Positions 1 through 17,944 of a stretch of 25,101 bases of DNA are shown here, piece by piece. Position 1 is the first letter of the stretch; every line of letters begins with the position of its first letter. The stretch lies in IMG/VR virus record IMGVR_UViG_3300009165_000006. One strand, written 5' to 3'. The DNA comes from a virus. Under the pieces are notes generated by a model. It was not told the DNA's origin. It was given only the letters and a program-made list of their open reading frames with translations, and made no database searches. Position numbers and translations under genes: made by a program.

Positions 1-304
1 GGGCGTCCCTCGTAGCCTGTGTTTACCTACTAAGAGGAAGGATTGGCTCATTCCAGGGAACAGAGATCGTCAGCTTACTTTGACCTAGCAGGGCCGGTTC
101 GGCCTAGCTGAGGCATGGTATCTACATCGGATAGAATCTACATCTATAGGATCTACATCTGGTGTCTATCGGTTCACCTGTTACGACCCACCGAAGTAGG
201 CGGCCTCAGGTTTCTTACCTGGCTGACCCCAGAAGGAAGGCGCTAAGCCTATTCGGGCGCTGGGCAAGAAGAACTTACGACCCCCGGAGGATACCCCAGG
301 ACGG

Positions 305-544
305 TCAAGTGGTCAAGGATTTAGATGTGGCTAACTTAGAAGCCACTGATCTACCTAGCTCGGTTGGGACCAAAGTGATTCGGTAGCTACCCAAGGTCTC
401 ACTTTTGGACACATACTCAAGCTCGAGGAGCTTGAGAGCAGGCTTGTATTCCGGGAAACAACTCCAAGCTCGATATCCATCGTCAGTAACCTTGATGACT
501 TCCTGAAGGACCCGGGCTTGGGCTGGGGATAGCTTCTTGCTCAT
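305..544 (-). CDS. Family B small wHTH DNA-binding protein (LexA N-terminal-like domain only), copy 3
   Basis: 79-aa ORF. Its N-terminal half is a paralog of ORF 2861..3079 (KLSPAQARVLQEVIKVT vs KLTPTQVKTLQEIIKIT), and nt 337-385 are near-identical to 2869-2917. Pattern LTxxQxxxLxxI...G.P.....PEY...LKLLELGYV...G...I.LV resembles the LexA N-terminal winged helix. Preceded by the conserved promoter at 545-580. Confidence 0.6.
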   Translation of the reverse strand: MSKKLSPAQARVLQEVIKVTDDGYRAWSCFPEYKPALKLLELEYVSKSETLGSYRITLVPTELGRSVASKLATSKSLTT

Positions 545-580
545 GCACTCTATTACGCCTGGGCTCTAAAGAGATCAACC
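545..580 (-). promoter_or_regulatory. sigma70-like leaderless promoter: TTGATC(573-578 rc)-17-TAATAG(550-555 rc)-5-ATG
   Basis: Member of the conserved TTGAG-N17-GCGTAATAG-N5-ATG family seen in front of many minus-strand genes. Confidence 0.55.
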
Positions 581-717
581 TTTGCTGGGCGGTTCTTTGA
601 AGGAGAGCACGAGGACCTTCGCCGTTGGAACCTCATGGGGGTCGATCGATAATCGACCCCCATTGGAGGTCAAATCCTTGATCTCGTCGAACAGATCTTG
701 TTGTTTCTCGCTGAGCT

Positions 718-894
718 TCATTCGTTGACGCTCACGTGTAGTAGAAAGTCCCCTAGGGCCAGGACTGCCGTTTTCAGAGCTTGTCTCGCATGGGGTCCTA
801 ACAGGACCCCATGATTCGCCTGAACCTCATTGAGCATGTTGTTTGCCCAACGGGCAGCATGAGCCATAACTTCTAGGCGGGTTTCGGTAGACAT
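718..894 (-). CDS. hypothetical small protein (58 aa, MSTETRLEVMAHAARWANNMLNEVQANHGVLLGPHARQALKTAVLALGDFLLHVSVNE)
   Basis: Not in the supplied ORF track (below 60 aa). Found because the conserved promoter motif (TTGAGC-17-TAATAG-6-ATG, 895-930) sits directly upstream of an ATG at 892-894. Open frame runs to TGA at 718-720. Confidence 0.45.
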   Translation of the reverse strand: MSTETRLEVMAHAARWANNMLNEVQANHGVLLGPHARQALKTAVLALGDFLLHVSVNE

Positions 895-974
895 GCTCTC
901 TATTACGCGCGAGGGAGCCCGGGCTCAACCTCTCTTTCGAGGAAATCCCACCCCCCCTTCGAGACCAAGTTCCT

Positions 975-1160
975 CTAAGAGCGCTTTGGAGAACTTGGAG
1001 AGCTTGGTGGCCGTTCAGTCTCGGGTTCCTCGGGCCCCTGGTCTTTGAGGTAGATCTTGGCCGCCTCTACCTCGAGCGGGTCAAAAGATGATGTGTCCTG
1101 CTTGTGAAGCACGAGATGGGCTATTTGCCGGATTCTGTGACTGAATTCGTCCATACCCAC
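975..1160 (-). CDS. hypothetical protein (61 aa, Pro/Ser-rich C-terminus)
   Basis: ORF only. No clean promoter motif. Low-complexity tail. Confidence 0.25.
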   Translation of the reverse strand: MGMDEFSHRIRQIAHLVLHKQDTSSFDPLEVEAAKIYLKDQGPEEPETERPPSSPSSPKRS

Positions 1161-1216
1161 CCCGAATAGCCCAGTTCTAAGTCAATGTCCAAATTTTGAA
1201 CTCGAAAGTGTGTGGC

Positions 1217-1915
1217 TTACTCAGCTAACGCCCACTTGAGTGCCACTTCACAACCCGCTGGCATTTTGGCGGATGCTAGCCCGCCTCGGCTTTGTCGGAA
1301 ACTGTTCCGAGCTTCCCATCGAACCTCTCGGGACGCTAGCCCTTGGTCGACCGACCACGCTCGGTTACAGCACTCGAGCACTTCCACGTAGTAGGTTGAT
1401 GCTAGGGCCGCCGCAAGTCGACGTTGGTCTGCCGCTTGGGCTCGAAGAACCACGGCTCCCCTTCGGGCTCGACCGCCACTACGCCCTGAAGCTCGCGCCC
1501 GGGCCTGCCCCTCCAGCTCGATGGCAGCCTGGATCGCAGCTCGTAAGCGAGTCTCAATCTCCAGCTTACGAGCCGAATGAAGCTCGGCGTACGCCCTCTC
1601 GATCTTCCGATCTTGAAACAGTCGAGCCAAATGGGCCCGCCTCTTCTCCCGCCACTTCTCCAGGTCCGCGACGTAAGTGATGTCGCTGTCCCCACCGGGA
1701 TAGTACGACTCTTCCGCGCGCGCAGTAGACCCTGCCTGCAGGGTCACCTCGCAGGACTTCCAGCGGCAGAACCCGTTGTCTCCGGACTCCACAGAAGGCC
1801 CCCGTGTGGCCCCGCCGGTCAACGTCAACCGGACGATCCCAATCCCCGACCCAAAGTAACTGTAACACTGGCAGTATAGTGTTAGTTTCTTCCCTGGACG
1901 TACATACTGTATCAT
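1217..1915 (-). CDS. hypothetical protein, N-terminal CxC...CxxxxC cluster and Ala/Arg-rich coiled-coil C-terminal half
   Basis: 232-aa ORF. Upstream TTGAGT(1959-1964 rc)-18-TAATAG(1935-1940 rc), then a 19-nt leader containing AGGAG (1924-1928 rc) 9 nt before the ATG, so this is a leadered mRNA with a Shine-Dalgarno sequence. The GC-rich opposite-strand ORFs look like translation artefacts. Confidence 0.6.
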   Translation of the reverse strand: MIQYVRPGKKLTLYCQCYSYFGSGIGIVRLTLTGGATRGPSVESGDNGFCRWKSCEVTLQAGSTARAEESYYPGGDSDITYVADLEKWREKRRAHLARLFQDRKIERAYAELHSARKLEIETRLRAAIQAAIELEGQARARASGRSGGRARRGAVVLRAQAADQRRLAAALASTYYVEVLECCNRAWSVDQGLASREVRWEARNSFRQSRGGLASAKMPAGCEVALKWALAE

Positions 1916-2138
1916 GGTTTCTTCTCCTGCACGTCTATTACGCTTGAGCCTATCCTGAACTCAATTGGGAAAGATTACCTGTAATAGTAGAGGGATACTG
2001 AACCATCGTACCGTACCGACGCGTCCAACCAGGGGAGTCCCCCTAAGCGCCACTTGATGGCGTCGCATACGGTCCTAATACGCTTACTCCCCGTCTCATG
2101 AGTGGGGGTCCCGACCAACCAACGAATCAGTTTTTCTT

Positions 2139-2579
2139 TCATGGCTTCTCTTCGAACAGTGTACGATCATAACCAACTTGCATCACCGTACCATCCTGAT
2201 GGTGCAGGTTGTAGGCGTGCCCCATCTCGTGGAGTACTGTGTAATACAAGTCAAACTCCCACGTGTCTCTATCCCGACGGTCCGTAATCCGGATCTCGTG
2301 CCACTCATACAACCCCTTGTGGTGGGTGTAGATGGCGTGATCCTTCCCCGGCAATACCCCTACCGGCACGATGCGAATCTTGTTGGCGCCCTCTTCCCGG
2401 TTCATCTGGGCGCACCAAGCACCACTCGTCGCTTCACACCAAGCGTCCGAGGCCTCCTGCATGATCGCAATCTCTTCCTCCGTAGCGTCCCCTGTCACCT
2501 GGAAGTGGTCCTCTAAAGGGGCACATCCACTCAGGTCGACTAGGAGAACTGCCGCTACGGTGATGAGGTATCGTGCCAT
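2139..2579 (-). CDS. small secreted lipoprotein zinc metalloprotease (metzincin/snapalysin-like, HExxHxxxxxH)
   Basis: N-terminal signal peptide with lipobox LSGC. HEMGHAYNLHH motif in a roughly 125-aa mature protein. Conserved leaderless promoter at 2580-2614. Confidence 0.6.
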   Translation of the reverse strand: MARYLITVAAVLLVDLSGCAPLEDHFQVTGDATEEEIAIMQEASDAWCEATSGAWCAQMNREEGANKIRIVPVGVLPGKDHAIYTHHKGLYEWHEIRITDRRDRDTWEFDLYYTVLHEMGHAYNLHHQDGTVMQVGYDRTLFEEKP

Positions 2580-2610
2580 GCCATCCTATTACGCACGACC
2601 CCCAAGAACC

Positions 2611-2844
2611 TCAACCGGTTTCGTCGACCCAGTTCCGCCCAGTCGCCGGGTTCCAAGCCTTGAATCCTGCCTTGGTGATCTCGAGAGCCAACGCCTTCGA
2701 GTCAGCATCGTCCCCTCGTAGGGTGGGAACGTACCCATCGAGCATCTTGGCAGCTAACTCCGCGAACGACCTAAAGGCCGTGGCCGAAGCCGTTAGCTGG
2801 TTGAGTTTGTCGATCTGGGCAGCAACTTGAACTTCGCTTTTCAT
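2611..2844 (-). CDS. Family A hypothetical protein (77 aa), copy 1
   Basis: Paralog of 3110..3340 (shared C-terminus ...FAELAAKMLDGYVPTLRGDDADSKALAL.ITKAGFKAWNPATGRNWVDETG identical over about 45 aa). GAGGGGG Shine-Dalgarno about 10 nt upstream, 16 nt after the family B gene. Confidence 0.6.
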   Translation of the reverse strand: MKSEVQVAAQIDKLNQLTASATAFRSFAELAAKMLDGYVPTLRGDDADSKALALEITKAGFKAWNPATGRNWVDETG

Positions 2845-2860
2845 GTAGAAAATCCCCCTC

Positions 2861-3079
2861 TTACAAGCTCGAAGCCACTGATCGACCTAGCTCGGTCGGA
2901 ACCAAGATGATTAGAGACCCACCTAAACTTTTAGTCTTCGACACGTACCCGAGCTCGAGCAGCTTAAGAGCCGGCTTGTATTCCGGGACACAACTCCAAG
3001 GAAACCCCACACCCGTAATCTTGATGATCTCTTGGAGAGTTTTAACCTGGGTGGGGGTTAGCTTTTTCGTCTTGGGCAT
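2861..3079 (-). CDS. Family B small wHTH DNA-binding protein (LexA N-terminal-like), copy 1
   Basis: 72-aa ORF. Promoter TTGAGG-17-TAATAA-6-ATG at 3080-3113. Paralog of 305..544. Confidence 0.65.
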   Translation of the reverse strand: MPKTKKLTPTQVKTLQEIIKITGVGFPWSCVPEYKPALKLLELGYVSKTKSLGGSLIILVPTELGRSVASSL

Positions 3080-3109
3080 GCCTCTTATTACGCGCGAGCT
3101 TCGAGAACC

Positions 3110-3340
3110 TCAACCGGTTTCGTCGACCCAATTCCGTCCCGTTGCCGGGTTCCAAGCCTTGAATCCCGCCCTGGTGATCCCTAGGGCGAGGGCCTTTGAG
3201 TCCGCATCGTCTCCACGTAGAGTGGGAACGTACCCATCAAGCATGCGAGCTGCTAGCTCAGCAAACGACTTGAATGCCGTCACCTTGGCAGTCAGTTCGT
3301 TGAGCGAGGCAAGCATGTCAGCCGTATGTTTGAGGGTCAT
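3110..3340 (-). CDS. Family A hypothetical protein (76 aa), copy 2
   Basis: Paralog of 2611..2844. Promoter TTGAGT-17-TAATAC-6-ATG at 3341-3375. The tandem P-A-P-B-A unit at 2580-3375 is about 85% identical at the nucleotide level between repeats. Confidence 0.65.
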   Translation of the reverse strand: MTLKHTADMLASLNELTAKVTAFKSFAELAARMLDGYVPTLRGDDADSKALALGITRAGFKAWNPATGRNWVDETG

Positions 3341-3349
3341 GCCCTAGTA

Positions 3350-3559
3350 TTACGTGCCAGTCTTGCCAAACTCAACCAAACTTCGACGGCGTTCCTGCCT
3401 TTCTACGAGAATCCTATCCCCACACGTGGCAGCCCGGATGCTGTCACATGTGAGTTTTGTATGGAACTCACATGTGACAGCATCCGGTGGAACGTCTTTC
3501 ACCAAACCGAGCCTTACGGCTCTCAAAAAGTGTGCGACTTTCCCCTCAACTGATGACAT
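3350..3559 (-). CDS. hypothetical small protein (69 aa), or a small RNA; contains a 23-bp perfect palindrome
   Basis: Well-formed promoter TTGAGA(3588-3593 rc)-17-TACTAC(3565-3570 rc)-5-ATG. The ORF reads through the 3434-3487 hairpin and into the next gene's promoter, so protein-coding status is uncertain. Confidence 0.3.
   Translation of the reverse strand: MSSVEGKVAHFLRAVRLGLVKDVPPDAVTCEFHTKLTCDSIRAATCGDRILVERQERRRSLVEFGKTGT
3434..3487. repeat. perfect 23-bp inverted repeat (CCGGATGCTGTCACATGTGAGTT / AACTCACATGTGACAGCATCCGG) with an 8-nt loop
   Basis: Read directly: arms 3434-3456 and 3465-3487 are exact reverse complements. Confidence 0.9.
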
Positions 3560-3606
3560 GAGTCGTAGTATGTACCAAAAAGCGGACTCTCAACCAGAAA
3601 GTATGT

Positions 3607-3674
3607 AACTACACGTAGTTTTATGATTGGCTCATTACTATTGCTACGAACATGCTCTAAAACTACGTGTAGGC
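3607..3674. promoter_or_regulatory. conserved bipartite element, copy 1: AACTACACGTAG-16-TTACTATTG-21-ACGTGTAGGC (outer arms form a 14-bp inverted repeat)
   Basis: Same three blocks with identical 16/21-nt spacing recur at 8473-8540. Spacer sequences differ. Confidence 0.6.
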
Positions 3675-3976
3675 AATCAAGAGGCTCGAGCTTATAAGCT
3701 CGAACAAGGGACTAGCTTACATGTAGTTACTCAATACGCTGGTAACTATAGGAATGAGCCAAGAGCTTACCTACCTGTAAGCAATCTACTAACTATCCAG
3801 GCCACCCCCATTGTTCTGGTCATAAACGAGAGTGACCCTGGCTCCCCACCACCCTCGAGTCTTGATGCACTGCTCGTAACCTTACCGGCAACCTATCTTA
3901 CAGGTCAGCGTCAAACTCAAAATCCGGAACTGGACCAAGGCATTCCCCCCTACGGCGCATTAACCCTCCCCCAGGG

Positions 3977-4591
3977 TTAGCACAACGACCTCATTATCCG
4001 CTGGTACCGAGTAAGTACGGGAGCCCTTTCTTGTGGGGAATTCCTTAGAAGCCAATCTTGGCAATCAGTAAGTTGAGCTCTTCTCTCTTTAGCACTTTTA
4101 GCACTAGAAGTGGCTGCTCGAGCAGCCCAAGTCGTAGCAGCCCTAGCAGCAGCCTGAGCATTAGCCAAAGTAGTCATAACAGAAGCAGCCCAAGCAGCAG
4201 CCTGAGCAACCCGAGCAGCTCTATGAGCAGTCCTCCAAGCAGGCATTGAAGGAGCATCCTCAGACAGAACCTCCCAAGCAGCCTTAGCAGCCCTTTCTAG
4301 TTCTTCCTTTGAGACCGCTTCCCCGTTAACAAATCGGTCACACAGATCTAAAGCTCGAAGGGTATCAGGATGGAACCAACCTGTCTTCGTACAGCCTCGG
4401 CGTGCAACCCGAGCCACTACATAGACCATTCCCCTCCGCCCAAGAATCTCTTCATGTAGGAGTACCCCTACTTTAGCATTAGACGGAATCGATGCTTCAA
4501 ACAACTCCATCACTCCCATCGGGAGTAGTTCGTCTGGGATAAGGTCGGAAGGCTCCCAACTCTCAAGGAGTTCTTTCGTAATGGTGATCAT
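3977..4591 (-). CDS. Family D hypothetical protein (204 aa, Ala-rich C-terminal half), copy 1
   Basis: Paralog of 7826..8380 (shared blocks LIP.E.LPM...FEA.I.S..K.G.LL.EEILG.RGMVYV.AR.ARR.CT.TGW.HP.TLRALDLCDR, ...KERRAQL.DC..WL). Promoter TTGACT(4624-4629 rc)-17-GATAAT(4601-4606 rc)-9-ATG. Confidence 0.65.
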   Translation of the reverse strand: MITITKELLESWEPSDLIPDELLPMGVMELFEASIPSNAKVGVLLHEEILGRRGMVYVVARVARRGCTKTGWFHPDTLRALDLCDRFVNGEAVSKEELERAAKAAWEVLSEDAPSMPAWRTAHRAARVAQAAAWAASVMTTLANAQAAARAATTWAARAATSSAKSAKERRAQLTDCQDWLLRNSPQERAPVLTRYQRIMRSLC

Positions 4592-4647
4592 ACCACCCTC
4601 ATTATCCGTGGATCACCTCCAAAAGTCAACTGGTGTACTTTTGCCCC

Positions 4648-4923
4648 ATGAAAGAGAAGCCTGAACCCGAAAGGAAAGGCTGGGTACCGGTCACTGAATG
4701 CCATCCCCCAGTCGATGAACCACTACTCGTCTACCATCGTGTAGATCGATACCCGAGCGGCGAAGTGCATAGCTGGGACGCACTCCTCGTTGCAAAGTAC
4801 GATCGCACGTCTCATTGGTTAGTGGAATCGGATGCTGGCTATTGGGTACGCTTTTCCAAGTCCGAGCTAGTGACCCATTGGATGTATTTGCCCGAGCCAC
4901 CCGGCTCTTTGAGGTCCCCATAA
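4648..4923 (+). CDS. hypothetical protein (about 91 aa, Trp-rich)
   Basis: ORF 4633..4923, with the start more plausibly at ATG 4648 (MKEKPEP). TACTTT-6-ATG geometry upstream. Divergent from family D gene. Opposite-strand ORFs look less protein-like. Weak. Confidence 0.35.
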   Translation: MKEKPEPERKGWVPVTECHPPVDEPLLVYHRVDRYPSGEVHSWDALLVAKYDRTSHWLVESDAGYWVRFSKSELVTHWMYLPEPPGSLRSP

Positions 4924-5078
4924 AAGAAGACCGAGCCAATCCTCCGCACACAAGGAGAACTGGCCCGGCCTAGCCCGTACGTGGAAGATGATTGGAGAAC
5001 CACGCTCAGGCCAAACGGGAAAGTACTCCACCCCCACCCCGGTAGTCAACCTTTTTACAGCAGGCCGAAGTGGTTCGA

Positions 5079-5447
5079 TTACCCCTGCGAGTCTCCCACC
5101 TCTTTGATGGCTCTCTCCATCTGAGTGGCCAACTGACGTAGTTGGTTGGTCGTAAACTTCCGAGCCAACGCCTGGAGCCTCTCTAAGGCTACTACGTATA
5201 AGATATGAGCCATCTCTTGAGCATCCTGGGCCTCATAGAGCGCCACCATCTCAGGGGTGGGTGGGAACCATATGTGCCCGTCAGCCCAACGAGTTTTCTT
5301 CGGGATTCGTACCCCACTGGTAAGAATGACCATTGTCTTGGTTACCCGCTCAACAGTGACCTCACGCCAACTACGACCCACTTGGTGGTACCACTTCGAC
5401 CCAGCGACCGTATTTCGAACGGCTTCCTCAAGAATAGCGTTGCTCAT
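5079..5447 (-). CDS. Family C hypothetical protein (122 aa), copy 1
   Basis: Paralog of 6029..6400 and 7424..7780 (shared ...E.A..NTV.GSKWY..v...W..v.VE.VTKTT........I.K...........W.PPT). No canonical family promoter. Three ACTCAA (= TTGAGT) repeats lie upstream. Confidence 0.6.
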   Translation of the reverse strand: MSNAILEEAVRNTVAGSKWYHQVGRSWREVTVERVTKTMVILTSGVRIPKKTRWADGHIWFPPTPEMVALYEAQDAQEMAHILYVVALERLQALARKFTTNQLRQLATQMERAIKEVGDSQG

Positions 5448-5578
5448 ACCTACTACACACCACCTGTGCCCTAGTCCTGAGAGACTTTTGAGGCAGACTC
5501 AACCTCTGACTCAAAAGTCCCCCTACTCAAAAACCTCTTGCATGACGCCTTGACTACAGTACCACTAAGGCGCCCCCT

Positions 5579-6091
5579 ATGACGAGATTTCTCGTACAAT
5601 TCGAGACCGAGGACGATCAAGCCCTCATCAAGGCCCTCGTCTTCCTTCAGGAGAACGGCTTCAACCCAACCCTTCAGGCAGTCGCGGATGAACCAAAGCC
5701 CGTAGCACGTATCCCGGTAGTGGCACGCCTCGACCGGGATACGGCGTGGATGAAACTCCTCTCCGCCTTGAAGCCGAACCCCAAGAAGGTCCTCCAGTTC
5801 ATCAAGACCGGCCCCCCAAATGGTCTCTCCGCTAGGATGATCGCTGACCAGTTCAAGCAGAAACCAAACTGGTTCACCGGAGTCCTCAACGGCGGAATCC
5901 AACGTAACGTCAAGTCCGCCGGATTCCAGCTCGAAGACGTCGTTGTCATTACCCAGTATCGCGGAATGATCACCTACGCCCCCGGCCCAGAACTCAAACG
6001 CAGGGAGCTCAAAAGTCCCCTACCACCTTCACCGGCCTATGCCCCTATTGACGGTGACGAGGTCAATGAGGCTCTCCATCTGGGTGACTAG
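5579..6091 (+). CDS. hypothetical protein (170 aa), possible wHTH-like segment (VLQFIKTGPPNGLSARMIADQF)
   Basis: Protein-like composition. Its 3' end overlaps the convergent family C gene by 63 nt (antisense overlap). Confidence 0.5.
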   Translation: MTRFLVQFETEDDQALIKALVFLQENGFNPTLQAVADEPKPVARIPVVARLDRDTAWMKLLSALKPNPKKVLQFIKTGPPNGLSARMIADQFKQKPNWFTGVLNGGIQRNVKSAGFQLEDVVVITQYRGMITYAPGPELKRRELKSPLPPSPAYAPIDGDEVNEALHLGD

Positions 6092-6400
6092 TTGCCGGAG
6101 CTGGTCAGCTGTAGTCCACTGAGCAATAGCTCGAAGCTTCTCTAGAGCTGCCAGGTAAGAGGTCATCGCGTCCTTCTTCGCCATGACCTCCAGAACTAGG
6201 TCCTGAGTGGGTGGAAACCAGATCCGCCCAGCATGATCACGACAGGTTGCCTTCGAGATGCAAGTGCCCCCCAGAAGCACAACCGTAGTCTTGGTTACCT
6301 TCTTGACCTCAACCGCATGCCACTTACCATGGATGCACTGATACCACTTTGAACCAGGTACCGTATTTCGAATGGCCTCTTCGCGATCAACTGCGTTCAT
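6029..6400 (-). CDS. Family C hypothetical protein (123 aa), copy 2
   Basis: The track ORF 6029..6439 was trimmed to ATG 6398-6400. This ATG sits 5 nt after the conserved TAATAG (6406-6411 rc) with TTATGG -35 (6430-6435 rc) and aligns with the paralog N-termini (MNAVDREEAIRNTVPGSKWYQ). Confidence 0.65.
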   Translation of the reverse strand: MNAVDREEAIRNTVPGSKWYQCIHGKWHAVEVKKVTKTTVVLLGGTCISKATCRDHAGRIWFPPTQDLVLEVMAKKDAMTSYLAALEKLRAIAQWTTADQLRQLVTQMESLIDLVTVNRGIGR

Positions 6401-6583
6401 GTTCTCTATTACGCTTGCCCCCTGCGAACCCATAACCAAAATCTATAGCGTTCGCCTGTGGTACCCCCAAGAAACTAGCTTTGGCTGGGGTACTGGGAAG
6501 TCGGCCAACATCAAGTACCCCATCCGGAACCCAGTGCTTGGCTCCCCATTCTATGAAACTTAAGCTGGGTTTGGAGTCAACTT

Positions 6584-7378
6584 CTAGATCTCCATTTGCT
6601 CGGCCAAGTACTCGTAGTCGTCAAGCTTACCATTGGCACGCGAGGCCCTATTCGAGGCTTCGGACGCCCCGTTGGGTGCACCAAGCTTGGCGCGAGCTGT
6701 GACGCAATCCTCGTCGCGATGCCACTGACCACGGAGCTGCCACCGGGATTGCTCTCGTAGAGTCAACTTCCTCCAACCCTGTTCTCTAGCCCTCTGGTAG
6801 AGCTGCCTTGAAGCAAGGCGATTCGCCTCACTCAGAGTGAGTCCAATCGCCGCAGTCCCGAAGTCGCGTGCCAAATCCTCGACATCACACCACGGTAGGA
6901 AACGGTAGTAGCGCGTCCAGTGCCATGTCAGGATATCTGCGGCCCGTACCGGGTCAGACAATCGATGTGAGTAGCGAACAAAAGACTGCGACCATAGCAA
7001 TTCCTTGCCGGCGAACCGGTCACTCACCATGACCGTACAGGGAACTGTCTCATCAGCCGATACCTCAAGGCTAATTGGCCTCAAATCGCGAGCTTGCTCT
7101 TCTGGGAGCAGGCGAAATAGCATCCGAATCCGCCGAGTCCCGTCGAACTTACCAGTCTTGTTTGAGATCTCCAAAACCTGGCCCCATCGGCCTCGACCAG
7201 AAAAGAAATCGTCAACGACAACGACGTCAATGTCGCCCGTCGACACGCCTAGTAGCCCGGAGACTACGCCACGCATCGTACGTGACAGCCACACCACATT
7301 TTCTGTGGCCTCAAGGCTGAATTGGAAGGATGAAATCTCAACAGAACCCCGAACGATCAATTCAATTGGCTTTTTCAT
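6584..7378 (-). CDS. hypothetical protein (264 aa) with a G-x-S-x-G-D-I-D-VVVVDD acidic motif; possible nucleotide/metal-binding fold, unassigned
   Basis: Long clean ORF co-transcribed 45 nt downstream of family C copy 3 (no promoter motif between). Motif GLLGVSTGDIDVVVVDDFFSGRGRWG does not fit any family I can name with confidence. Confidence 0.6.
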   Translation of the reverse strand: MKKPIELIVRGSVEISSFQFSLEATENVVWLSRTMRGVVSGLLGVSTGDIDVVVVDDFFSGRGRWGQVLEISNKTGKFDGTRRIRMLFRLLPEEQARDLRPISLEVSADETVPCTVMVSDRFAGKELLWSQSFVRYSHRLSDPVRAADILTWHWTRYYRFLPWCDVEDLARDFGTAAIGLTLSEANRLASRQLYQRAREQGWRKLTLREQSRWQLRGQWHRDEDCVTARAKLGAPNGASEASNRASRANGKLDDYEYLAEQMEI

Positions 7379-7423
7379 GTCCCATACCCGAGGTCAATTT
7401 CTCGGGCCTCCTAGTACGAGCGG

Positions 7424-7780
7424 TCAGTGAATCTCCGACAGGTCAATGAGGCTCTCTAGCTGAGTGGCTAGCTTGAGAAGTTGAGCAGGCGTAGCACGCT
7501 GAGCTGCCTCTCGAAGCTTCTCTACGGCCGCCTCGTAAGCAACCCTGGCGACCTCAAAGTCCTCGAACTGCTTGACGATGTTCTGAGTGGGTGGATACCA
7601 AGCCCAACCATCTTGGTCACGACAGTTCCTCTTCGAGATGCGAGTCCCCCCTTCGAGGTAGATCGTAGTCTTGGTTACCCTCTCGACCAAGCCCACTACC
7701 CACTTGCTATTCACGCACTGATACCACTTCGAACCAGGAACCGTGTTCAGGATGACAGCTTCTCGTTCGACTTTGCTCAT
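7424..7780 (-). CDS. Family C hypothetical protein (118 aa), copy 3
   Basis: Promoter TTGAGT(7811-7816 rc)-18-TAATAG(7787-7792 rc)-6-ATG. Paralog alignment as above. Confidence 0.7.
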   Translation of the reverse strand: MSKVEREAVILNTVPGSKWYQCVNSKWVVGLVERVTKTTIYLEGGTRISKRNCRDQDGWAWYPPTQNIVKQFEDFEVARVAYEAAVEKLREAAQRATPAQLLKLATQLESLIDLSEIH

Positions 7781-7825
7781 GCCACCCTATTACGCATGGG
7801 CGCCTAGAGAACTCAACCAAATTCC

Positions 7826-8380
7826 TTAGGCCCGTCTCGTAAGCCACTCCCGACAATCGGCGAGTTGGGCTTTTCTCTCTTCCTTCTCACTAGGGACAGC
7901 ACTAACAGCCGTTCGAATAACTGTTAGTGCCCTAGTCCGGGCACTAGTATCAACGGCAACAGCCCAAGCAACTCGAGCAGCCCCATGAGCAGCCTCCCAA
8001 GCATCCATTGAAGGGGCATCATCAGCCATTGAAGGAGCCTCAGAAACAGCCAAAGCAGCTGCCCCTAGCGCTTTAGCTGAGATCTCTTCCCCCTCAGCGT
8101 AACGGTCGCATAGGTCGAGAGCTCGAAGGGTAGCAGGATGGTCCCAACCTGTCTCTGTGCAGGCTCGGCGCGCAGCCCTAGCCGCCACGTAGACCATCCC
8201 CCTTCCCCCAAGAATCTCTTCACGTAGGAGAAGCCCTATCTTGTTCTCAGAGGAAATCGGGGCTTCGAACACCTTCAGCGCCTCCATTGGAAGTTGTTCA
8301 CTCGGGATGAGGTTGGAAACCTCCCACCCCTCAAGAAGTCCACTCGTAAGAACGACCCCATTTCGTTCGGTTTGGCTCAT
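7826..8380 (-). CDS. Family D hypothetical protein (184 aa), copy 2
   Basis: Promoter TTGAGA(8409-8414 rc)-17-TAATAG(8386-8391 rc)-6-ATG. Paralog of 3977..4591. Confidence 0.7.
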   Translation of the reverse strand: MSQTERNGVVLTSGLLEGWEVSNLIPSEQLPMEALKVFEAPISSENKIGLLLREEILGGRGMVYVAARAARRACTETGWDHPATLRALDLCDRYAEGEEISAKALGAAALAVSEAPSMADDAPSMDAWEAAHGAARVAWAVAVDTSARTRALTVIRTAVSAVPSEKEERKAQLADCREWLTRRA

Positions 8381-8472
8381 GCCCTCTATTACGCACGAGC
8401 ACCCGAACTCTCAACTTCTTTCTACTCTATCTATGTAAGTAGAGGACTACCCCATGAGGGTACGGGTTCCTA

Positions 8473-8540
8473 CGGTTCTTACAACTACACGTAGGCAAGA
8501 ACCACGCTCGTTACTATTGATTCGAGCGCGCTCGTCACTT
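8473..8540. promoter_or_regulatory. conserved bipartite element, copy 2: AACTACACGTAG-16-TTACTATTG-21-ACGTGTAGGC
   Basis: Identical block order and spacing to 3607-3674. Internal GAGCGCGCTC palindrome in this copy. Confidence 0.6.
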
Positions 8541-8739
8541 ACGTGTAGGCTACCTTATCTTTCGTACCTACCATAGCTAATCATACCCTCGCCTACATAG
8601 GTATAGACGTATGACAAACACTACCTCATATCTTATAGGACTACCCTACCTACACTTGCGCGAAGCGCCTGTTCTGGTGTGGTTATCCGACACCTACTAC
8701 TTTCACAGTAAATCACGATGCGCCGAAGGCGCATCGTCG

Positions 8740-8940
8740 GATGTGTGTAGGAAACCTCACAACACAACTGGGGGTTGTGTAAAACACACAGTTCTGCAGG
8801 GAAACTGTGTGCTGTTTTCAAATGTGTAGTAAAAACACTGCACAAGTCAATTGCACGAAAGTGCCGTGATTTGTATAGTGTTTTGCCGTTTGTCGCGTTT
8901 ATTTGGAATTTTAGATCAGGTGGGTTTGATATTCGGGAGG
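8740..8940. other. AT-rich, A-tract and short-hairpin-rich region (candidate DNA unwinding element) in the divergent control region
   Basis: Local AT enrichment with TGTGT/ACACA repeats and small inverted repeats (e.g. ACACACAGTT..AACTGTGTG, GATGCGCC gaa GGCGCATC at about 8715-8735). Sits between the minus- and plus-strand gene blocks. Confidence 0.4.
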
Positions 8941-8944
8941 TCTG

Positions 8945-9140
8945 GTGATATACAAAACGGTCGGTCGGTGCTATACGAGCCCGTAGGCCGAGTGATATAC
9001 AAAACCGAACCAAGAACCAAAGTGATATACAAGCCCACGGGCAGGCTTCGCAGGCCAATGGGCTTGTATATCACTGACCCAAGAGCCGGGATAATTTGTA
9101 TATCACTGACCCAAGAGCCGGAAAGGAAAGTGATATACAA
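8945..9140. repeat. iteron array: 6 copies of GTGATATACAA (direct at 8945, 8992, 9022, 9130; inverted at 9065, 9096), including a 26-bp direct repeat TTGTATATCACTGACCCAAGAGCCGG x2 (9065-9090, 9096-9121)
   Basis: Read directly. Spacings of about 30-31 bp (three helical turns). Typical of plasmid/phage origin iterons, partition sites or operator arrays. Confidence 0.75.
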
Positions 9141-9175
9141 GTTCAAAGCTGCGGTGTATGACGGCTTATTCGAGC

Positions 9176-9526
9176 ATGGCCGTCAAGAACTACACGAAAA
9201 CTATACTCATTCGGGCAAGGGATGGGAAAGCACGGTCATGGGCGCTTCGCGCCAGTGAGAGTGGGAAGCGCCTATCGACTTGGATACGGGAGTCACTCAA
9301 TGAGAGGGCTGGGTACAAGCCTGATGGGTTGTCATCTGAGTCCATCTCACCTGAGCCTGAGGTGGGACCTGAACCAGTTATCGAGCCTGAAGTAGGGGAG
9401 TCAACTTCAGAGTCTGAGCGACCAGTTGACGAGGGCACTCAAGGTTCACCTGTTGGGGTTGGAGCCTCTCTCATTACGGATGACGAGATGCGGGTGATAC
9501 TTGATGACGTGTTGGGTAGGGGTTGA
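9176..9526 (+). CDS. ribbon-helix-helix (CopG/Arc/ParG-like) DNA-binding protein with acidic/Ser-Pro-Glu-rich disordered C-terminal tail
   Basis: N-terminus KTILIRARDGKARSWALRASESGKRLSTWIRESL fits the beta-strand/helix/helix RHH pattern. Start chosen at the second ATG (MAVKNY); ORF track starts at 9158. Immediately follows the iterons. Confidence 0.55.
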   Translation: MAVKNYTKTILIRARDGKARSWALRASESGKRLSTWIRESLNERAGYKPDGLSSESISPEPEVGPEPVIEPEVGESTSESERPVDEGTQGSPVGVGASLITDDEMRVILDDVLGRG

Positions 9527-9901
9527 GCTACTGACGATGTTCTAGCTGGCTGAGATGTCATGTGGCTCCATTACGGTCGAGGGGGTCTTCTTGGTGGGTT
9601 GCCACTTGAAGGCATCGGGGAACTGAAGGGTACCGAGCTTGAGGGGTATTGCTTAGGGTTGAGGTGCCACAGGTCATCGTCTATACCAACGACAGTGCTG
9701 CGGTTGGTATTGGTGTTCCAAGACTCTCTAGGCTTGGTGGTGGCTTATGGGGAGGTGTTCTATCTTGAGGGTTGGCCTAGGGCGTGTCCGTAGGCGAAGT
9801 AGAAACCGACTGTGCTATTCTGGCCGAGTCTTTGTCCTTCGATGGCGGGACAGTAAACCAAAAGCTTGCGTTTGCCTACGCGTTTTAGTACACATAGGCG
9901 T

Positions 9902-10288
9902 ATGACAGCATTTGCCCTTGGAGACATCGTTCTCGTAGCACGTCAACCGAAGGATATGATGGTTCACATTGTTGGCGAGGTAGGAGTCATTGAATCCTTG
10001 ACCTCTACCCATGCATCGATTACGTGTTTGAAGCTTGACGGTTCGATGTCGGGGTGCGGGGCTGTTCTACTGGACTGTCTTGAGCACGAGACCCGCTCTC
10101 ATTGGAGGCGAGCCAAAGAGATTCGGGACGCGAACGCTGCACAGAGCTTTGCCGAGGGTATGGAGCGGACCGAGAGATACCGTGCTCGAATGGCTGCACT
10201 GTCGGCCAAGTATGGGATCTCGGTTGAGAACGTGAAAGCTCTCTACTCGGACATTGTAGCGCTGAATAATCGGGGGTGGTGGTCGTAA
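9902..10288 (+). CDS. hypothetical protein (about 128 aa)
   Basis: ORF 9866..10288. ATG 9902 (MTAFALGD) preferred. Protein-like composition. First gene of a start/stop-overlapping plus-strand operon. Confidence 0.5.
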   Translation: MTAFALGDIVLVARQPKDMMVHIVGEVGVIESLTSTHASITCLKLDGSMSGCGAVLLDCLEHETRSHWRRAKEIRDANAAQSFAEGMERTERYRARMAALSAKYGISVENVKALYSDIVALNNRGWWS

Positions 10289-10494
10289 TGATGTACCGAG
10301 TAACGTACAACGTCTTTCTATCCTCTTCTGGTGAGCGGGTTACGGGTAGCCAGGTCATTGTTGAGGTCTCGGTCGAGGGTGGGGAGGATGTCAATGACGT
10401 AGCCTATGGGGAGGCGTCCAACTTGTTGGTTGAGAAGTTTGTCGTAGGTGGTGGTGAATCTCTTGGACCGCCTGTATCTGTTGAGAGGCTATGA
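10276..10494 (+). CDS. hypothetical small protein (about 67-72 aa)
   Basis: Overlaps the upstream stop and the downstream start (ATGATG at 10491). Start uncertain (10276 or 10291). Confidence 0.4.
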   Translation: MVVVMMYRVTYNVFLSSSGERVTGSQVIVEVSVEGGEDVNDVAYGEASNLLVEKFVVGGGESLGPPVSVERL

Positions 10495-10964
10495 TGGACG
10501 AAGTGATTGAGCTACTGGAGAAACGTGGGGCTTGTGATTCATCTCTTGATTGGTTGAGCGGGTTACCTTTGGGGACGACACTTCAAGAGGCGTGGGAGCG
10601 ATGTGAGAATGGGTCATGGCTTCTTTGGTTACTTGTTCGAGTCTACCCTAAGAGTGCGGCTTACCACCAGTTCATACTCAGGGTAGCGAATCGGGCAATC
10701 GAGGTAGCCGGCGGTGACTCTGTTCTTGTCCAAGTTGTCCGGGACAAGGAAGTCTGGTGTCAAGTGGCAACACCTTTGGAGTTGGAGTCTTCGATAACGT
10801 GGTCGAAGGATGCAGCTTGGCAAGCGAGCCTTTCACTTGTGTGGGACCGTTTGGGTAAGGGGCGCTCGCCCGAGTGGTTTGCAGAGCTGAGGGCTCGGGC
10901 AGATGATCTTCGTTCTCTCTTCAGCAGGCCGGATCTGAGCTTAGTTCGCAAGGGGAAGTCGTGA
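10491..10964 (+). CDS. hypothetical protein (157 aa)
   Basis: Clean ORF in the operon. No recognisable motifs. Confidence 0.55.
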   Translation: MMDEVIELLEKRGACDSSLDWLSGLPLGTTLQEAWERCENGSWLLWLLVRVYPKSAAYHQFILRVANRAIEVAGGDSVLVQVVRDKEVWCQVATPLELESSITWSKDAAWQASLSLVWDRLGKGRSPEWFAELRARADDLRSLFSRPDLSLVRKGKS

Positions 10965-10980
10965 AGTTTGGACCTTTCTC

Positions 10981-11265
10981 ATGCCCCTTGGAGTTTGTTT
11001 GTACAAAAGAAGCGAGGTAGCCGTGAAGTTTCAAATCGTAACCTACAACCAGGCTCAAAGGCTGTGTTGTTACCCTTCAACAAGTAAGAAGCGCTACTTA
11101 GCGATGACTGTTCCGTTTGGGCTTCAGGGCGAAGAACCTTTTCGAGCTGAGGGTGATACTCGGGAGGAGGCCAAGGCGAACCTGATAGTCTTGGTTCAGC
11201 GGTTCCTTGACGATTACCCTGAGCTTGAGGTAACTGAGGTTGACCTTCAACCAAGTCACGTTTGA
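10981..11265 (+). CDS. HicB-like / UPF0150-family small protein (antitoxin-like fold)
   Basis: VPFGLQGEEPFRAEGDTREEAKANLIVLVQRFL matches the UPF0150 signature (P.lPGc...GeTlEEAlenl). Start may instead be GTG 11023. No HicA-like partner recognised nearby. Confidence 0.45.
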   Translation: MPLGVCLYKRSEVAVKFQIVTYNQAQRLCCYPSTSKKRYLAMTVPFGLQGEEPFRAEGDTREEAKANLIVLVQRFLDDYPELEVTEVDLQPSHV

Positions 11266-11386
11266 CAAGGGGGCGAGCACCGAGGGAAGGTTGGGAGTCT
11301 CAGGGGAAGTACTCGAAGGCTTCCCCTGTTAGGGGGATCAACGTCTGACTTCTTTGATGGGGAGGCCTGGAAGCGGAAGAACGTGG

Positions 11387-11590
11387 TCATACTTCGTCAT
11401 TGGAGATCAGGATATAGGGCTGACCTTCTTCGTAGCCGAAGTCTTCGCCAGTAATGTCGGCCTTGGTTGGTTCAACCTTGTCTATGATGAAGGGCGGAGC
11501 GTCTATGTGGACGAGGTAGAAGACCTCCAGGTCACCTGGGTTGGATTCTCGTATGGTTTGAAGTCTTTGGATGAGGTTATCGAGTGTCAT
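11387..11590 (-). CDS. hypothetical acidic small protein (67 aa); the alternative is the plus-strand ORF 11354..11650
   Basis: Both strands are open here. The minus-strand product looks more protein-like but it sits inside an otherwise plus-strand operon and lacks a clean promoter. Unresolved. Confidence 0.25.
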   Translation of the reverse strand: MTLDNLIQRLQTIRESNPGDLEVFYLVHIDAPPFIIDKVEPTKADITGEDFGYEEGQPYILISNDEV

Positions 11591-11927
11591 GGTGGCAAAC
11601 TACAGGGATCCAGTGCGGATGGTACGGGACATCCGGGCTCACGTCCATGAGCATGGGCATCGAGTTCAGCCGGCGGACGACCCAATGAGGCAGATGCTTG
11701 GGTACATGTGTCCGACCTGCGAGGTGTTTTGGACGTGTGGGTTACTGGCGCTTCGGGAGCTGGACGAGGCACGACTTATGGGCACACCTCTGACGGGTGT
11801 GGTTCAGAGGCGGGACGTACGGGAGCGGCTGACGGCCTACCTGAACTGGGAGCTTGACGACCCTCGGCCTACAGAGCCCTCAAAAGTTCCTGTTTTAAGT
11901 CGATACAAGCGGCCATGGGTGGTATAG
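11571..11927 (+). CDS. His/Cys-motif domain protein (family E), single-domain copy
   Basis: Paralog of 23224..23856: DPVRMVRDIRAHVHEHGHRVQPADDPMRQMLGYMCPTCE vs DPVQMIRDIRYHVRLTGHRAIPGDDPRRAMLGWICSTCE. Both end RY(K/H)RPWV(V/I). True start probably ATG 11589 (MVANYRDPV). Confidence 0.6.
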   Translation: MRLSSVMVANYRDPVRMVRDIRAHVHEHGHRVQPADDPMRQMLGYMCPTCEVFWTCGLLALRELDEARLMGTPLTGVVQRRDVRERLTAYLNWELDDPRPTEPSKVPVLSRYKRPWVV

Positions 11928-12421
11928 AATTGGCTATTACGATGGTCTATGAGTTCAAAGCCAATGGGAAAGTCATTTACGGATATCGGTTCGATCATCA
12001 ACTACTTCAAGTAGTTGATGGGATGGAGCCCGTGTGCCAGTCAAACTCTTCCCATGTAGTTGTACCGGGCGGGCTCTACTGTCCCCAGTGTGGTTCAACG
12101 GTGAAAAAGCGGGATCGGATGGTGCCTTCGCCAATCGTAGTCGAGTATGCTACTCAGTATGGGATGTCCATTGACGTGGCGCTATCTACTCTTCTCAACT
12201 GTCAGCATCAAGTACCTCAGCAGTGGTTTGATCCGAACGATAGTGAAGACTGGCTATTTGGGGTTACGGTCGTGGATGGAGGGGCGAACACTTGCACGGA
12301 GTTCTACCCGTTTTGGCATCCGGATCGAATCGAGGGCTTAGAGAAGGCGGTTCTGCTCTTCACTGACCTCGGATTGGATCCCGCAGGGGCGAAGTACTAC
12401 CTCTTAGTGAAACCGTCATGA
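11915..12421 (+). CDS. hypothetical protein (168 aa) with CPQCG zinc-ribbon-like motif
   Basis: Start overlaps the upstream stop within a CCATGGGTG context. The same context occurs at 23842-23850. Confidence 0.55.
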   Translation: MGGIELAITMVYEFKANGKVIYGYRFDHQLLQVVDGMEPVCQSNSSHVVVPGGLYCPQCGSTVKKRDRMVPSPIVVEYATQYGMSIDVALSTLLNCQHQVPQQWFDPNDSEDWLFGVTVVDGGANTCTEFYPFWHPDRIEGLEKAVLLFTDLGLDPAGAKYYLLVKPS

Positions 12422-12636
12422 CGGTGTTAAGTGCACTCATGACTAACTCGAAAGCAGTGCCGAACCAAGTCATCTATCAAGGGGTGCTGGATGATGGACA
12501 GATCATACTCACCTCTGTCCATCATCCTTCGGAGTATGTGAGTGAGGATGGGAAGGTGGTCATGACGTGTGAATCTGTCGAAGAAATCCCACTAAACAGC
12601 AGTTTCCCAGAACCCAAGACCCACTCCCAATCTTAA
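12418..12636 (+). CDS. hypothetical protein (72 aa)
   Basis: ATGA start/stop overlap with the upstream gene. Confidence 0.45.
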   Translation: MTVLSALMTNSKAVPNQVIYQGVLDDGQIILTSVHHPSEYVSEDGKVVMTCESVEEIPLNSSFPEPKTHSQS

Positions 12637-12849
12637 CACAAAGGTCTCTGTGGACATAGTTGTACAGAAATAAGAGAGGTGGTTACCCAGTGACTAATGC
12701 ACCTATTACTCCATGCTAAGTATGACTCAACACCTAAATGAGGATTCAAGTCCAAGGGTACATTCCGCCCTAAAGAAACCTAAGAAGCTTAAAGGACGTT
12801 CGAGAGTTGACAAGGATTGCAGGTTAGTCTCGAAAGGTTACTTGGTACA

Positions 12850-13095
12850 ATGTACTCTGAAGTTCTAAGGTATTTAGCAGTTGGGCTGGGTGGGTACTCC
12901 CTGGCTTTGCTGACGATTGCGGTGATCGATTGGCAGGCGAATCGCATTCGTCGACGGCGTGGCTTTTGGTCAATCTCGCCCGATGGTTCCGACGTGATGT
13001 GGCAGAAGGGCGATTTGAAGCTTCACTTTTCTATGATCTCTCGTGAAATTCAGCAAGAGCAACCAGTCCAGACGCAACGTAAAGGGATGGACTGA
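12850..13095 (+). CDS. small membrane protein (one TM helix YLAVGLGGYSLALLTIAVI followed by RRRR); holin-like topology is speculative
   Basis: ORF 12817..13095, with ATG 12850 preferred (AAAGG about 13 nt upstream). Convergent with the beta-helix gene. Confidence 0.4.
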   Translation: MYSEVLRYLAVGLGGYSLALLTIAVIDWQANRIRRRRGFWSISPDGSDVMWQKGDLKLHFSMISREIQQEQPVQTQRKGMD

Positions 13096-13207
13096 AAGGA
13101 TACTTTCAGGGCATGGCCGACCTATTACGGATCTGCATCTTCATCGGACTGTGGGTCTGCGAAGTCTATCTCTGTCGTATGCTTTATCGAGCGTGTTGAA
13201 AGAAGGT

Positions 13208-13250
13208 GGTCTTCGAGTGATCCTAGTTCGATTGGGCTCGAAGGACCTTT
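13208..13250. terminator. hairpin GGTCTTCGAG...CTCGAAGGACC followed by TTT, between convergent genes
   Basis: Inverted repeat read directly. Short T-run only. Confidence 0.35.
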
Positions 13251-13253
13251 GAC

Positions 13254-15218: not shown

Positions 15219-15648
15219 CCCTTACTAAGAACTCTAAAGGCAAGGCCACTGTATTGATGAAGGTGGTCTCTGTGAAGGTAGCGTTGTGGATGATGTCTAC
15301 GGCACCTATAGAGGTTAACCACGTGACTACCGAACCCGTAACAACCTTTTTGAGAGCTGCTGCGTTGGGGTAATACCCTAGGTCATGGTGTATCGTTGCT
15401 GAGTTCCCTGGGCCCGGGAAGGCCGCTAGAGAGAGGATCTCGTTGAGCCTTAGCTTACCCACCTTCTCGAACTGATAGAGATCACCTTTTTGAGCGGATC
15501 GAATGACTTCTGAAGTGTCGGGCAGGTAAACACTACGTCCCGCCCCAATGTACTGGTCCTCAGCTCTCCGGGCCTCGGATTGACCCTGCCGAATGAGTCT
15601 TAAGTCCTTCAGGTAGATCGGAGCATTGGTGAGATTCGTGACTTTCAT
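15211..15648 (-). CDS. hypothetical protein (145 aa), co-transcribed upstream partner of the beta-helix protein
   Basis: Clean ORF. GGGG 5-8 nt before the ATG. Putative promoter TTAGAC-17-GATAAC upstream. Confidence 0.55.
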   Translation of the reverse strand: MKVTNLTNAPIYLKDLRLIRQGQSEARRAEDQYIGAGRSVYLPDTSEVIRSAQKGDLYQFEKVGKLRLNEILSLAAFPGPGNSATIHHDLGYYPNAAALKKVVTGSVVTWLTSIGAVDIIHNATFTETTFINTVALPLEFLVRVG

Positions 15649-15767
15649 GAAACCCCAGATGTAATCTCATCAGAGAGTTATCTGACCTAGGGTTACCTGG
15701 TCTAAACCCTTGATATACTTATACTAATCCTAAGCCTGGTAGGTTTCCGTAGCTAGCGACATAGGTT

Positions 15768-15795
15768 TTGACTTCTAGAGGAAATCACGTAGGAT
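15768..15795 (+). promoter_or_regulatory. sigma70-like promoter TTGACT-16-TAGGAT for the Thg1-like gene (about 35-nt leader)
   Basis: Hexamers read directly. The same TTGACT...TAGGAT pair recurs at 24216-24242. Confidence 0.5.
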
Positions 15796-15830
15796 GGTTA
15801 GCTACTCGAGCACAGAAGTGACCTCAAAGT

Positions 15831-16577: not shown

Positions 16578-16849
16578 ACAGTTGGATTTCAGCTAGAACG
16601 CTCTTTCAGCCAAACAAGAACCCTCGTCCCAGTACTTCGCAACGTAGGAGACGAGAGTCCTCAAAGATTTGAACCTAGCATCCACAGTACAATAACAACG
16701 GTAGACTTCAAGGCTCCTAATGGAGCCTTAGTGACCCTGCACATAAGCGAACAAGAGTTGGAACAACTCCTCCCGTTCTTCACTGAACCACCCGTACCAA
16801 AAACAACAAAGACGATGTACCCATCAAGGTATCACCGGGTGCCAGTGAT

Positions 16850-17128: not shown

Positions 17129-17224
17129 ACTTACGTTAGAGTAGAACTCTCAGTTTGAAGCTATGCGAACCAGATTTTGTGATCTTACCTTCACAGTAAG
17201 CCTCCGGCTAGTACGGTAATAGCG

Positions 17225-17898: not shown

Positions 17899-17908
17899 GT
17901 CACGAGAT

Positions 17909-17939: not shown

Positions 17940-17944
17940 ATCGG

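Follow-up and report, generated by a model that had tools for sequence, protein, structure and literature searches.

What is the crowded run of small genes at one end of a viral DNA stretch, and how is it expressed and reshaped? The stretch is IMG/VR virus record IMGVR_UViG_3300009165_000006 (25,101 nucleotides (nt), the whole of which is termed the window below), and the run, at positions 305–8414, consists of about 18 small genes on the minus strand. A sequence-only reading had described four paralog families of tiny genes there (A–D), each copy with its own promoter, in a phage accessory locus. Our analysis leads to the view, held with a probability of about 0.6, that 305–8414 is a leftward and most likely early arm whose genes are promoted individually, and that it belongs to an uncultured tailed phage of about 95–100 kb. 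The earlier placement of genes preceded by their own promoter motif in a phage accessory or early arm was borne out in this respect by phage genes in the window and in a relative and by a repeated motif. The arm starts with D2 and diverges from an iteron-rich control region at ~8.4–9.15 kb, where the GC skew changes sign. All genes between 305 and 8380 run leftward except a DUF551 gene and possibly a plus-strand open reading frame (ORF) of 170 amino acids (aa).

Alignment of the regions upstream of the genes revealed a repeated cassette (P in the gene orders below) of ~38 nt, GTTGAG(T)-N16-GCGTAATA-nGGGC-ATG, which comprises two blocks and ends at the start codon (consensus a.A.a.GTTGAGttc.t.....CtCg.GCGTAATAg.GgGCATG). 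The pattern TTGAG-N15–19-GTAATA occurs nine times in the window compared with 0.02 expected, and seven of the nine are minus-strand occurrences within 900–8414. These seven end 6–7 nt before the ATG, with the exception of that of gene g1217, where the distance is 20 nt and the leader carries a separate Shine-Dalgarno-like AGGAGA. A full cassette is found ahead of B1, B2, A2, C3, and D2, as well as ahead of the non-family genes at 718, 1217, and 2139, and in D1 it is replaced by a near-consensus TTGACT-17-GATAAT. The claim that every copy has its own promoter therefore holds for these six family genes and partially for C2, and fails for A1, which has no cassette but a Shine-Dalgarno-like GAGGGGG, and for C1, where nothing clear was found. 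Across the window, its own extension (L004), and three relatives (L005, L008, and L009), 19 distinct cassettes share a strict geometry with a 16-nt spacer and 6 nt to the ATG. The blocks are conserved and the sequence of the N16 spacer varies, which argues for selection on function and not for recent copying. Strict cassettes are absent from the right arm of the window, where the two loose matches (12704–12730 and 15350–15375) lack the ATG geometry, and essentially absent from L010, a 20-kb segment from elsewhere in a relative genome. The two blocks agree with the 16–18-nt separation of σ70-type promoters, occur above chance, and are oriented with the genes.

In the arrangement that we propose, most genes of the arm would lie directly behind a cassette with two-block promoter geometry, with the ATG 6–7 nt after the −10-like block, and each would be transcribed on its own. 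Because the last block ends so close to the ATG in this geometry, the cassette-linked mRNAs are probably leaderless or near-leaderless, starting at or next to the A of the start codon.

Several points weigh against this proposal. The −10-like block (GTAATA/TAATAG) does not combine A at position 2 with T at position 6, as expected of σ70 promoters, and a generic σ70 scan recovered only the promoter of D1. Most genes of the right arm (9158–24158) also have no recognizable Shine-Dalgarno sequence at a distance of up to 30 nt from their start, and its absence is thus not specific to the cassette genes; this hints at low Shine-Dalgarno usage in the host lineage, where leadered mRNAs may be translated by Shine-Dalgarno-independent initiation. 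No intergenic terminators were found in the arm, and consequently read-through transcripts must also exist. Promoter function, the “early” timing, and the leaderless starts are all read from the sequence. As for the host, relatives of the TnpB protein encoded in the window are only 27–30% identical in genomes and taxonomically scattered (Sutterellaceae, Oxalobacteraceae, Poribacteria, and Opitutae), so that TnpB does not point to any host.

The same features bear on a possible, although unlikely, alternative in which the cassette is not a promoter and acts as an operator or “stoperator”-type binding site, or as a translation-initiation element, within one polycistronic transcript from ~8.4–8.55 kb together with the D1 promoter. 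Such an arrangement would accommodate the non-canonical −10-like block, the lack of intergenic terminators, and a conservation that exceeds the needs of σ70 (CTCGnGCGTAATA and GGGCATG). TAATAG moreover provides stop codons in two frames, GAGGG resembles a Shine-Dalgarno sequence, and the arm itself encodes winged-helix proteins that could recognize sites of this kind. However, two conserved blocks with a variable spacer of fixed length (16–17 nt) represent promoter geometry, and GAGGG is separated from the ATG by 1–2 nt, less than a normal Shine-Dalgarno sequence would require, with the separate AGGAGA being present where the cassette lies 20 nt upstream. As is known of σ70 promoters, a GGG discriminator would also suit a stable open complex. 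A promoter remains the preferred interpretation of the cassette.

The element is assigned to a tailed phage because of its DUF551, Thg1, and PHROG structural matches and of the phage-typical genes on the contig of a relative. Two A-like sequences in phage-like surroundings, described with family A below, point the same way. The phage-type genes of the window comprise those for DUF551, Thg1, TnpB, and a 654-aa protein with PHROG virion-structural matches, and the 94.9-kb contig of the relative encodes dCTP deaminase, peptide deformylase (PDF), a Ro60/TROVE-vWA protein, NUDIX, and Band_7. The same sequence is present on Joint Genome Institute (JGI) and Logan metagenome contigs, and its proteins are also found on contigs of up to 102 kb. 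Among cultured phages, no match was obtained by megablast with window positions 1–12000 or by tblastn with A1 and D1, a scan of viral contigs queried with D1 returned no relative, and no tRNA genes or Rfam matches were found. It appears extremely improbable that the region is instead the accessory region of a plasmid or integrative element, in which the iterons and a ribbon-helix-helix (RHH)-like gene at ~8.9–9.5 kb would form a replication/partition module. Six exact GTGATATACAA iterons do adjoin the RHH-like gene, the GC skew switches at the same place, and a TnpB gene is present, but the PHROG structural and Ig-like matches, Thg1, DUF551, and the phage-typical auxiliary genes on the relative's 94.9-kb contig speak against a plasmid, and no relaxase or conjugation genes were seen, although no search aimed at plasmids was made.

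All genes named by the sequence-only reading are minus-strand ORFs at the positions it gave, with a correction to the start of C2; its true start codon, the ATG at 6400, immediately follows the cassette block, and the protein has 123 rather than 136 aa. The paralogy was assessed by local protein alignments with 100 shuffles each as a control. Amino acid identity is 83% between A1 and A2 (z 61), 67% between B1 and B2 (z 46), 43–53% among C1, C2, and C3 (z 41–55), and 54% between D1 and D2 (z 52). The ratios of nonsynonymous to synonymous substitution (dN/dS, Nei-Gojobori) are low, 0.15–0.53 for all paralog pairs and 0.05–0.45 for orthologs in relatives, and therefore families A–D are genuine coding genes constrained by purifying selection. 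The description as tiny genes does not suit the D proteins, which have 184–204 aa. Copy numbers of two for A, three for C, and two for D stand, whereas B has two copies and not three: the homology at 337–385, taken for a third copy, sits within B1 itself (repeat 339–468 versus 2871–3000). The nearest thing to a third B copy, at 575–721, is the remnant of a different, B-like family, termed E. Searches of families A–D against Pfam, PHROG, and PADLOC produced no match above threshold, and profile searches of A–E against the PDB gave nothing significant.

Comparison of copy number across related genomes, a check that had been proposed with the families, revealed differences between close relatives. 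The gene order D2-C3-g6584-C2-C1-DUF551-D1-...-A-M10-like-...-E-B is kept in L005, which has one A and one B compared with two of each in the window, and in which C3 and g6584 are frameshifted or broken. Family E is present in five to six copies in relatives (five in L005, namely full-length E and four more, and six in L008, with C-domain-only copies included), and as the remnant only in the window. Over its residues 1–38, the remnant has 95% identity with the E proteins of 133 aa in L005 and L008.

The tandem arrangement of A and B has a mixed ancestry. A1 shares 97% amino acid identity with the A protein of L009 (dS 0.27) and B2 shares 79% with the B protein of L009, while A2 and B1 match genes of L005 and L008. 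At the DNA level, window 3115→2164 is collinear with, and 89.5% identical to, a P-B-A-P-peptidase stretch of L009, window 3423→3077 is 86.5% identical to L005, and the junction with the L009-like stretch falls at a cassette. Since A1 and B2 are orthologous to L009 and A2 and B1 to L005, the junction lies at a cassette, and dS agrees, the tandem A2-P-B2-A1-P is, on the strength of these alignments, a recombinant of two phage lineages joined at the shared cassette and the 3′ end of A. The duplications had been taken to be old and to have arisen in place, which is wrong for A and B, given that their copies are orthologous to two different lineages. Similarly, the tandem repeat, put earlier at about 85% over 2580–3375, was measured at 80% over 229 nt (2577–2805 versus 3077–3304) and comprises the 3′ two-thirds of A and the cassette following it.

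Family B corresponds to a minimal stand-alone basic winged-helix protein (72–79 aa, pI 9.4–9.8) with a winged helix-turn-helix fold. It had been regarded as a LexA-type winged helix; the winged helix was upheld, and the LexA type was not, as no significant match was found. Neither B1 nor B2 matched Pfam at E ≤ 1, PF01726 (LexA_DNA_bind) included, the B profile had nothing in the PDB at E ≤ 10, and hhalign of B with LexA gave a probability of 0.4%. Family E, found in the relatives, consists of proteins of 121–134 aa with a B-like N-terminal domain and a helical C-terminal domain, and hhalign shows B and the E N-domain to be related (E = 5.7e-5). In a pairwise hhalign comparison, the E N-domain aligned with the N-terminal domain of Escherichia coli LexA (a query entered by hand and not from a database record) with 86% probability over 48 columns at 35% identity, in an alignment that drops most of LexA helix 2. 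The first helix of E, L-[ST]-x-x-Q-Q-x-[LV]-[FL]-[DN]-x-I, is collinear with LexA 1–20 and AKAL-x-RKG-[LV]-I with LexA 45–57. Compared with LexA, E lacks about 12 residues, mostly of helix 2, an S24 peptidase domain is absent, and B itself has no detectable similarity. The E match is also non-significant at the database level, with LexA (1LEA) as the third-best PDB match of the E profile at E = 1.4 and PF01726 touched by one of four full-length E proteins (E = 0.15 over 18 residues).

These comparisons bear on the proposal that B, as a DNA-binding domain of the LexA type that lacks the peptidase, acts as a small repressor or as a decoy at host SOS boxes, which we consider very improbable. B is indeed a basic, stand-alone winged helix, and both the alignment of the E N-domain with LexA and the rank of 1LEA are in keeping with it. 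However, the B proteins themselves match neither PF01726 nor LexA, the E matches fall short of significance, and the one sizeable alignment deletes most of helix 2 and was made with the hand-entered query. In the 25 kb of the window, CTGT-N8-ACAG does not occur and GAAC-N4-GTTC occurs once, at chance level; the decoy idea is thus unsupported in cis. Two further candidates were rejected. MarR proteins consist of a winged helix-turn-helix core with N- and C-terminal dimerization helices in ~140 aa. Only this core is matched by B, which differs from MarR/PadR-type winged-helix domains in its length, in lacking the MarR dimerization helices, in a vestigial helix 2, and in having no Pfam match. B and A together do not represent a split E protein (hhalign of A with the E C-domain, probability 0.2%). 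B and E are likely nucleic acid-binding regulators.

Family A was searched exhaustively with HMMER over 1.84 billion representatives. Approximately 45 of the 58 matches are proteins of 56–115 aa with the pattern T-A-F-x-[ST]-[WF]-x-E-L ... G-Y-V-P-T-L ... G-[FY]-x-x-W, and none of the members has a Pfam or PDB match. All homologs come from metagenome sequences, and both of the contexts inspected are phage-like: one homolog belongs to an array of small genes lying upstream of genes for a PD-(D/E)XK nuclease and AAA_24, on a phage-like contig of 39 kb, and the other is fused N-terminally to an ADP-ribosyltransferase domain and adjoins a capsid gene/module. Judging from these homologs, A is a small module that extends past this phage lineage. 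An assignment to LysM (PF01476) was rejected, as fungal LysM proteins were matched only via a repeated F-x-A-W-N-P-A-x-G and none of 43 members hit LysM. Family C, with 19 homologs that have no Pfam domain or informative name and lie on contigs including those of 94.9 and 102 kb, is specific to this phage lineage. Phage_ProQ_C_like (PF24203) was rejected for C because its matches are below threshold (C1 at 17.6 bits versus a cutoff of 27; two of 19 members, best E = 0.002).

Family D forms an all-α bundle in the AlphaFold2 (AF2) model of D1; the central segment varies most and is modelled with the least confidence. The window has two copies, and a relative has seven close copies, arranged as two plus a tandem array of five. 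Immediately after D1, whose end it overlaps in a different frame, a stub at 3960–4064 on the minus strand, ending in PTRKGSRTYSVPADNEVVVLTLGEG before its stop codon, matches the N terminus of the tandem-array D proteins (P0032, PTRKSSRINLIPADNEVVVLTIT...). Because of this match, the stub suggests that a D copy following D1 was deleted; a D hidden Markov model (HMM) found no D remnant beyond this short 5′ stub in the gap 3560–3976. The D profile also reaches distant proteins (P0042–46, E = 2e-6 to 4e-4), one of which, P0043, matches Pfam Imm5_like at E = 6.7e-5 and 23.2 bits, below the cutoff of 25. Membership of D in Imm5_like (PF21805) was nevertheless rejected, as the window copies and close relatives, among 23 D-family sequences in the alignment, do not match it.

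Imm5 has been described as all-α, and polyimmunity loci as multi-copy (PMC3482391). D may resemble Imm5/Imm5_like (PF21805; PMC3482391) in being mostly α-helical and of similar size, in its multi-copy tandem loci, and in the near-threshold match of the distant homolog, and differs in that D1 and D2 are unmatched by the model, no toxin partner is present, and the context is a phage rather than a toxin locus. On this basis the arm could mainly be a counter-defense or anti-toxin arsenal, with D proteins as Imm5-like binders that neutralize host toxins or abortive-infection effectors and an arms race driving the copy expansion and the variable Ala/Trp-rich segment. The reach of the D profile to P0042–46, the all-α fold, the seven close copies with five in tandem, and the variability of the central segment agree with this explanation. 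Set against it are the missing Imm5 match of D1 and D2, the sub-cutoff score of P0043, dN/dS values of 0.33–0.53 that indicate no gene-wide positive selection, and the lack of PADLOC matches and of toxin genes nearby, and we regard it as a doubtful alternative to the individually promoted early arm.

Within that early arm, the products would be dispensable accessory proteins with fast turnover, among which B (a winged helix) and E (a winged helix with a helical domain) would likely serve as nucleic acid-binding regulators and D as an expandable all-α family. The families would grow, shrink, and pass from one related phage to another as the repeated cassettes and the conserved gene ends recombine, and copy numbers would consequently differ between close relatives. 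A more far-reaching version, which seems improbable to us, would make the cassette a portable module of promoter and start codon for leaderless mini-genes that doubles as a homology patch for swap, duplication, and deletion between phages, amounting to integron-like shuffling without an integrase under the control of truncated LexA-like B and E proteins.

The features of the arm are listed in the table.

Table. Genes and promoter elements of the leftward arm, in window coordinates
Feature	Coordinates	Strand	Cassette or promoter	Remarks
B1	305–544	−		79 aa, pI 9.4, stand-alone winged helix; 88–93% identical to the single B of L005 and L008
B1 cassette	542–578	−	TTGATC-N16-GTAATA-GAGTGC-ATG	
Family E remnant	575–721	−		48 aa, in-frame deletion; E-family HMM E = 8e-13
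58-aa gene	718–894	−	Cassette 892–928	100% aa identity in L005
232-aa gene (g1217)	1217–1915	−	Cassette 1936–1964	Cassette followed by 20-nt leader with AGGAGA
HExxH metallopeptidase-like gene	2139–2579	−	Cassette 2577–2614	146 aa; HEMGH motif; weak Pfam Metallopep and Peptidase_M10 matches
A1	2611–2844	−	No cassette	77 aa; GAGGGGG 10 nt upstream of ATG
B2	2861–3079	−	Cassette 3077–3113	72 aa, pI 9.8
A2	3110–3340	−	Cassette 3338–3375	76 aa; 93% aa identical to the single A of L005
D1	3977–4591	−	TTGACT-17-GATAAT, 4601–4629	204 aa; AF2 model all-α
DUF551 gene	4633–4923	+		Pfam PF04448, E = 1.2e-7; interrupts the leftward arm
C1	5079–5447	−	No clear cassette	122 aa; 97.5% aa identity in L005
C2	6029–6400	−	Downstream cassette block GCGTAATAGAGAAC-ATG, 6398–6414	123 aa
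g6584	6584–7378	−		264 aa, no family assignment; frameshifted in L005
C3	7424–7780	−	Cassette 7778–7816	118 aa; L005 ortholog split into two ORFs
D2	7826–8380	−	Cassette 8378–8414	184 aa

Several other elements were observed near the arm. A hairpin element of ~64 nt is located at 3609–3672 and at 8485–8548, just upstream of the first cassette (that of D2), with a third copy at L004 18061–18124. Its outer arms (CTACACGTAG ... CTACGTGTAG) and loop (CAATAGTAA) are conserved, and its inner stem is divergent yet still pairs. Its RNA folding z-scores are −5.4 and −4.0, and it is conserved in L005 and L009 at 85–89% identity. The hairpin is probably the “68-bp element” mentioned in the sequence-only reading and may represent either a pair of operators or a structured RNA. 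At 3434–3487, a perfect inverted repeat of 23 bp (8-nt loop, folding free energy −45 kcal/mol, z −9.6), with the palindrome TCACATGTGA in each arm, lies about 60 nt upstream of the A2 cassette within a doubtful 69-aa ORF (3350–3559); it is present in the near-identical contigs L002, L003, and L004 and absent from L005, L008, L009, and L010. The six exact GTGATATACAA iterons (four direct and two inverted, compared with 0.22 expected) occupy 8945–9140, between the divergent arms and directly upstream of a 122-aa gene (9158–9526) whose N terminus appears ribbon-helix-helix-like by eye. Eight copies of the iteron occupy the beginning of the contig of the relative, at L005 21–268, and the iteron region is likely an origin or operator.

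The 170-aa plus-strand ORF (5579–6091), which is annotated as a gene on the JGI contigs, shares 63 nt (6029–6091) with the 3′ end of C2 and lies opposite a 143-aa minus-strand ORF (5471–5902); its conservation in L005 is limited to the C-terminal 97 aa. On the right arm, the TnpB gene is Cas12f-like (21001–22143, plus strand) with OrfB_IS605 and TNB domains, and the Thg1-family gene for a tRNA-His guanylyltransferase is at 15831–16577 (plus strand). A right-arm paralog pair (11571–11927 and 23224–23856, both on the plus strand) shares 49% identity over 96 aa (E = 6e-24), and another pair past the left end of the window (L004 15775–16173 and 16226–16768) shares 84% over 61 aa. Paralogy is widespread throughout the genome.

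The locus provides a clear, sequence-defined case of the makeup of a phage accessory arm and of its change over time, with one expression cassette reused at least 14 times in this genome and families that expand, decay, and exchange at the cassettes. If confirmed, the cassette would supply a searchable early-gene signature for this uncultured phage group and a set of probable leaderless mRNAs in the host. The five uncharacterized protein families defined here are reasonable candidates for host-interaction screens. Current understanding is not overturned by these findings.

Among known systems, the stoperators of mycobacteriophage L5 and the early-promoter/operator repeats of phiC31 are repressor-binding sites of 13–17 bp. 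The cassette shares with them the many copies of one short motif, in a single orientation, in the short gaps of an early operon, and differs as a two-block unit of ~38 nt with promoter-like spacing that is tied to the ATG. The host-takeover module of Bacillus phage SPO1 and the early (Pe) regions of T4 contain many small, dispensable genes on one strand, with multiple closely spaced early promoters, paralogs, and rapid turnover. The arm described here resembles them in its clustered small and mostly uncharacterized one-strand genes, its multiple closely spaced promoter-like elements, its paralogs, and its rapid turnover. In contrast to SPO1 and T4, its promoter-like element is unusually stereotyped, with a non-canonical −10 block, and stands at a fixed 6–7 nt from the start codon, leaderless mRNAs are predicted, there are no protein families in common with those phages, as judged by the absence of phage-database matches, and the early timing is deduced. 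Small early-gene arrays with repeated promoters and paralogs are a known phage theme, to which this arm adds the stereotyped, ATG-fused cassette and the uncharacterized families.

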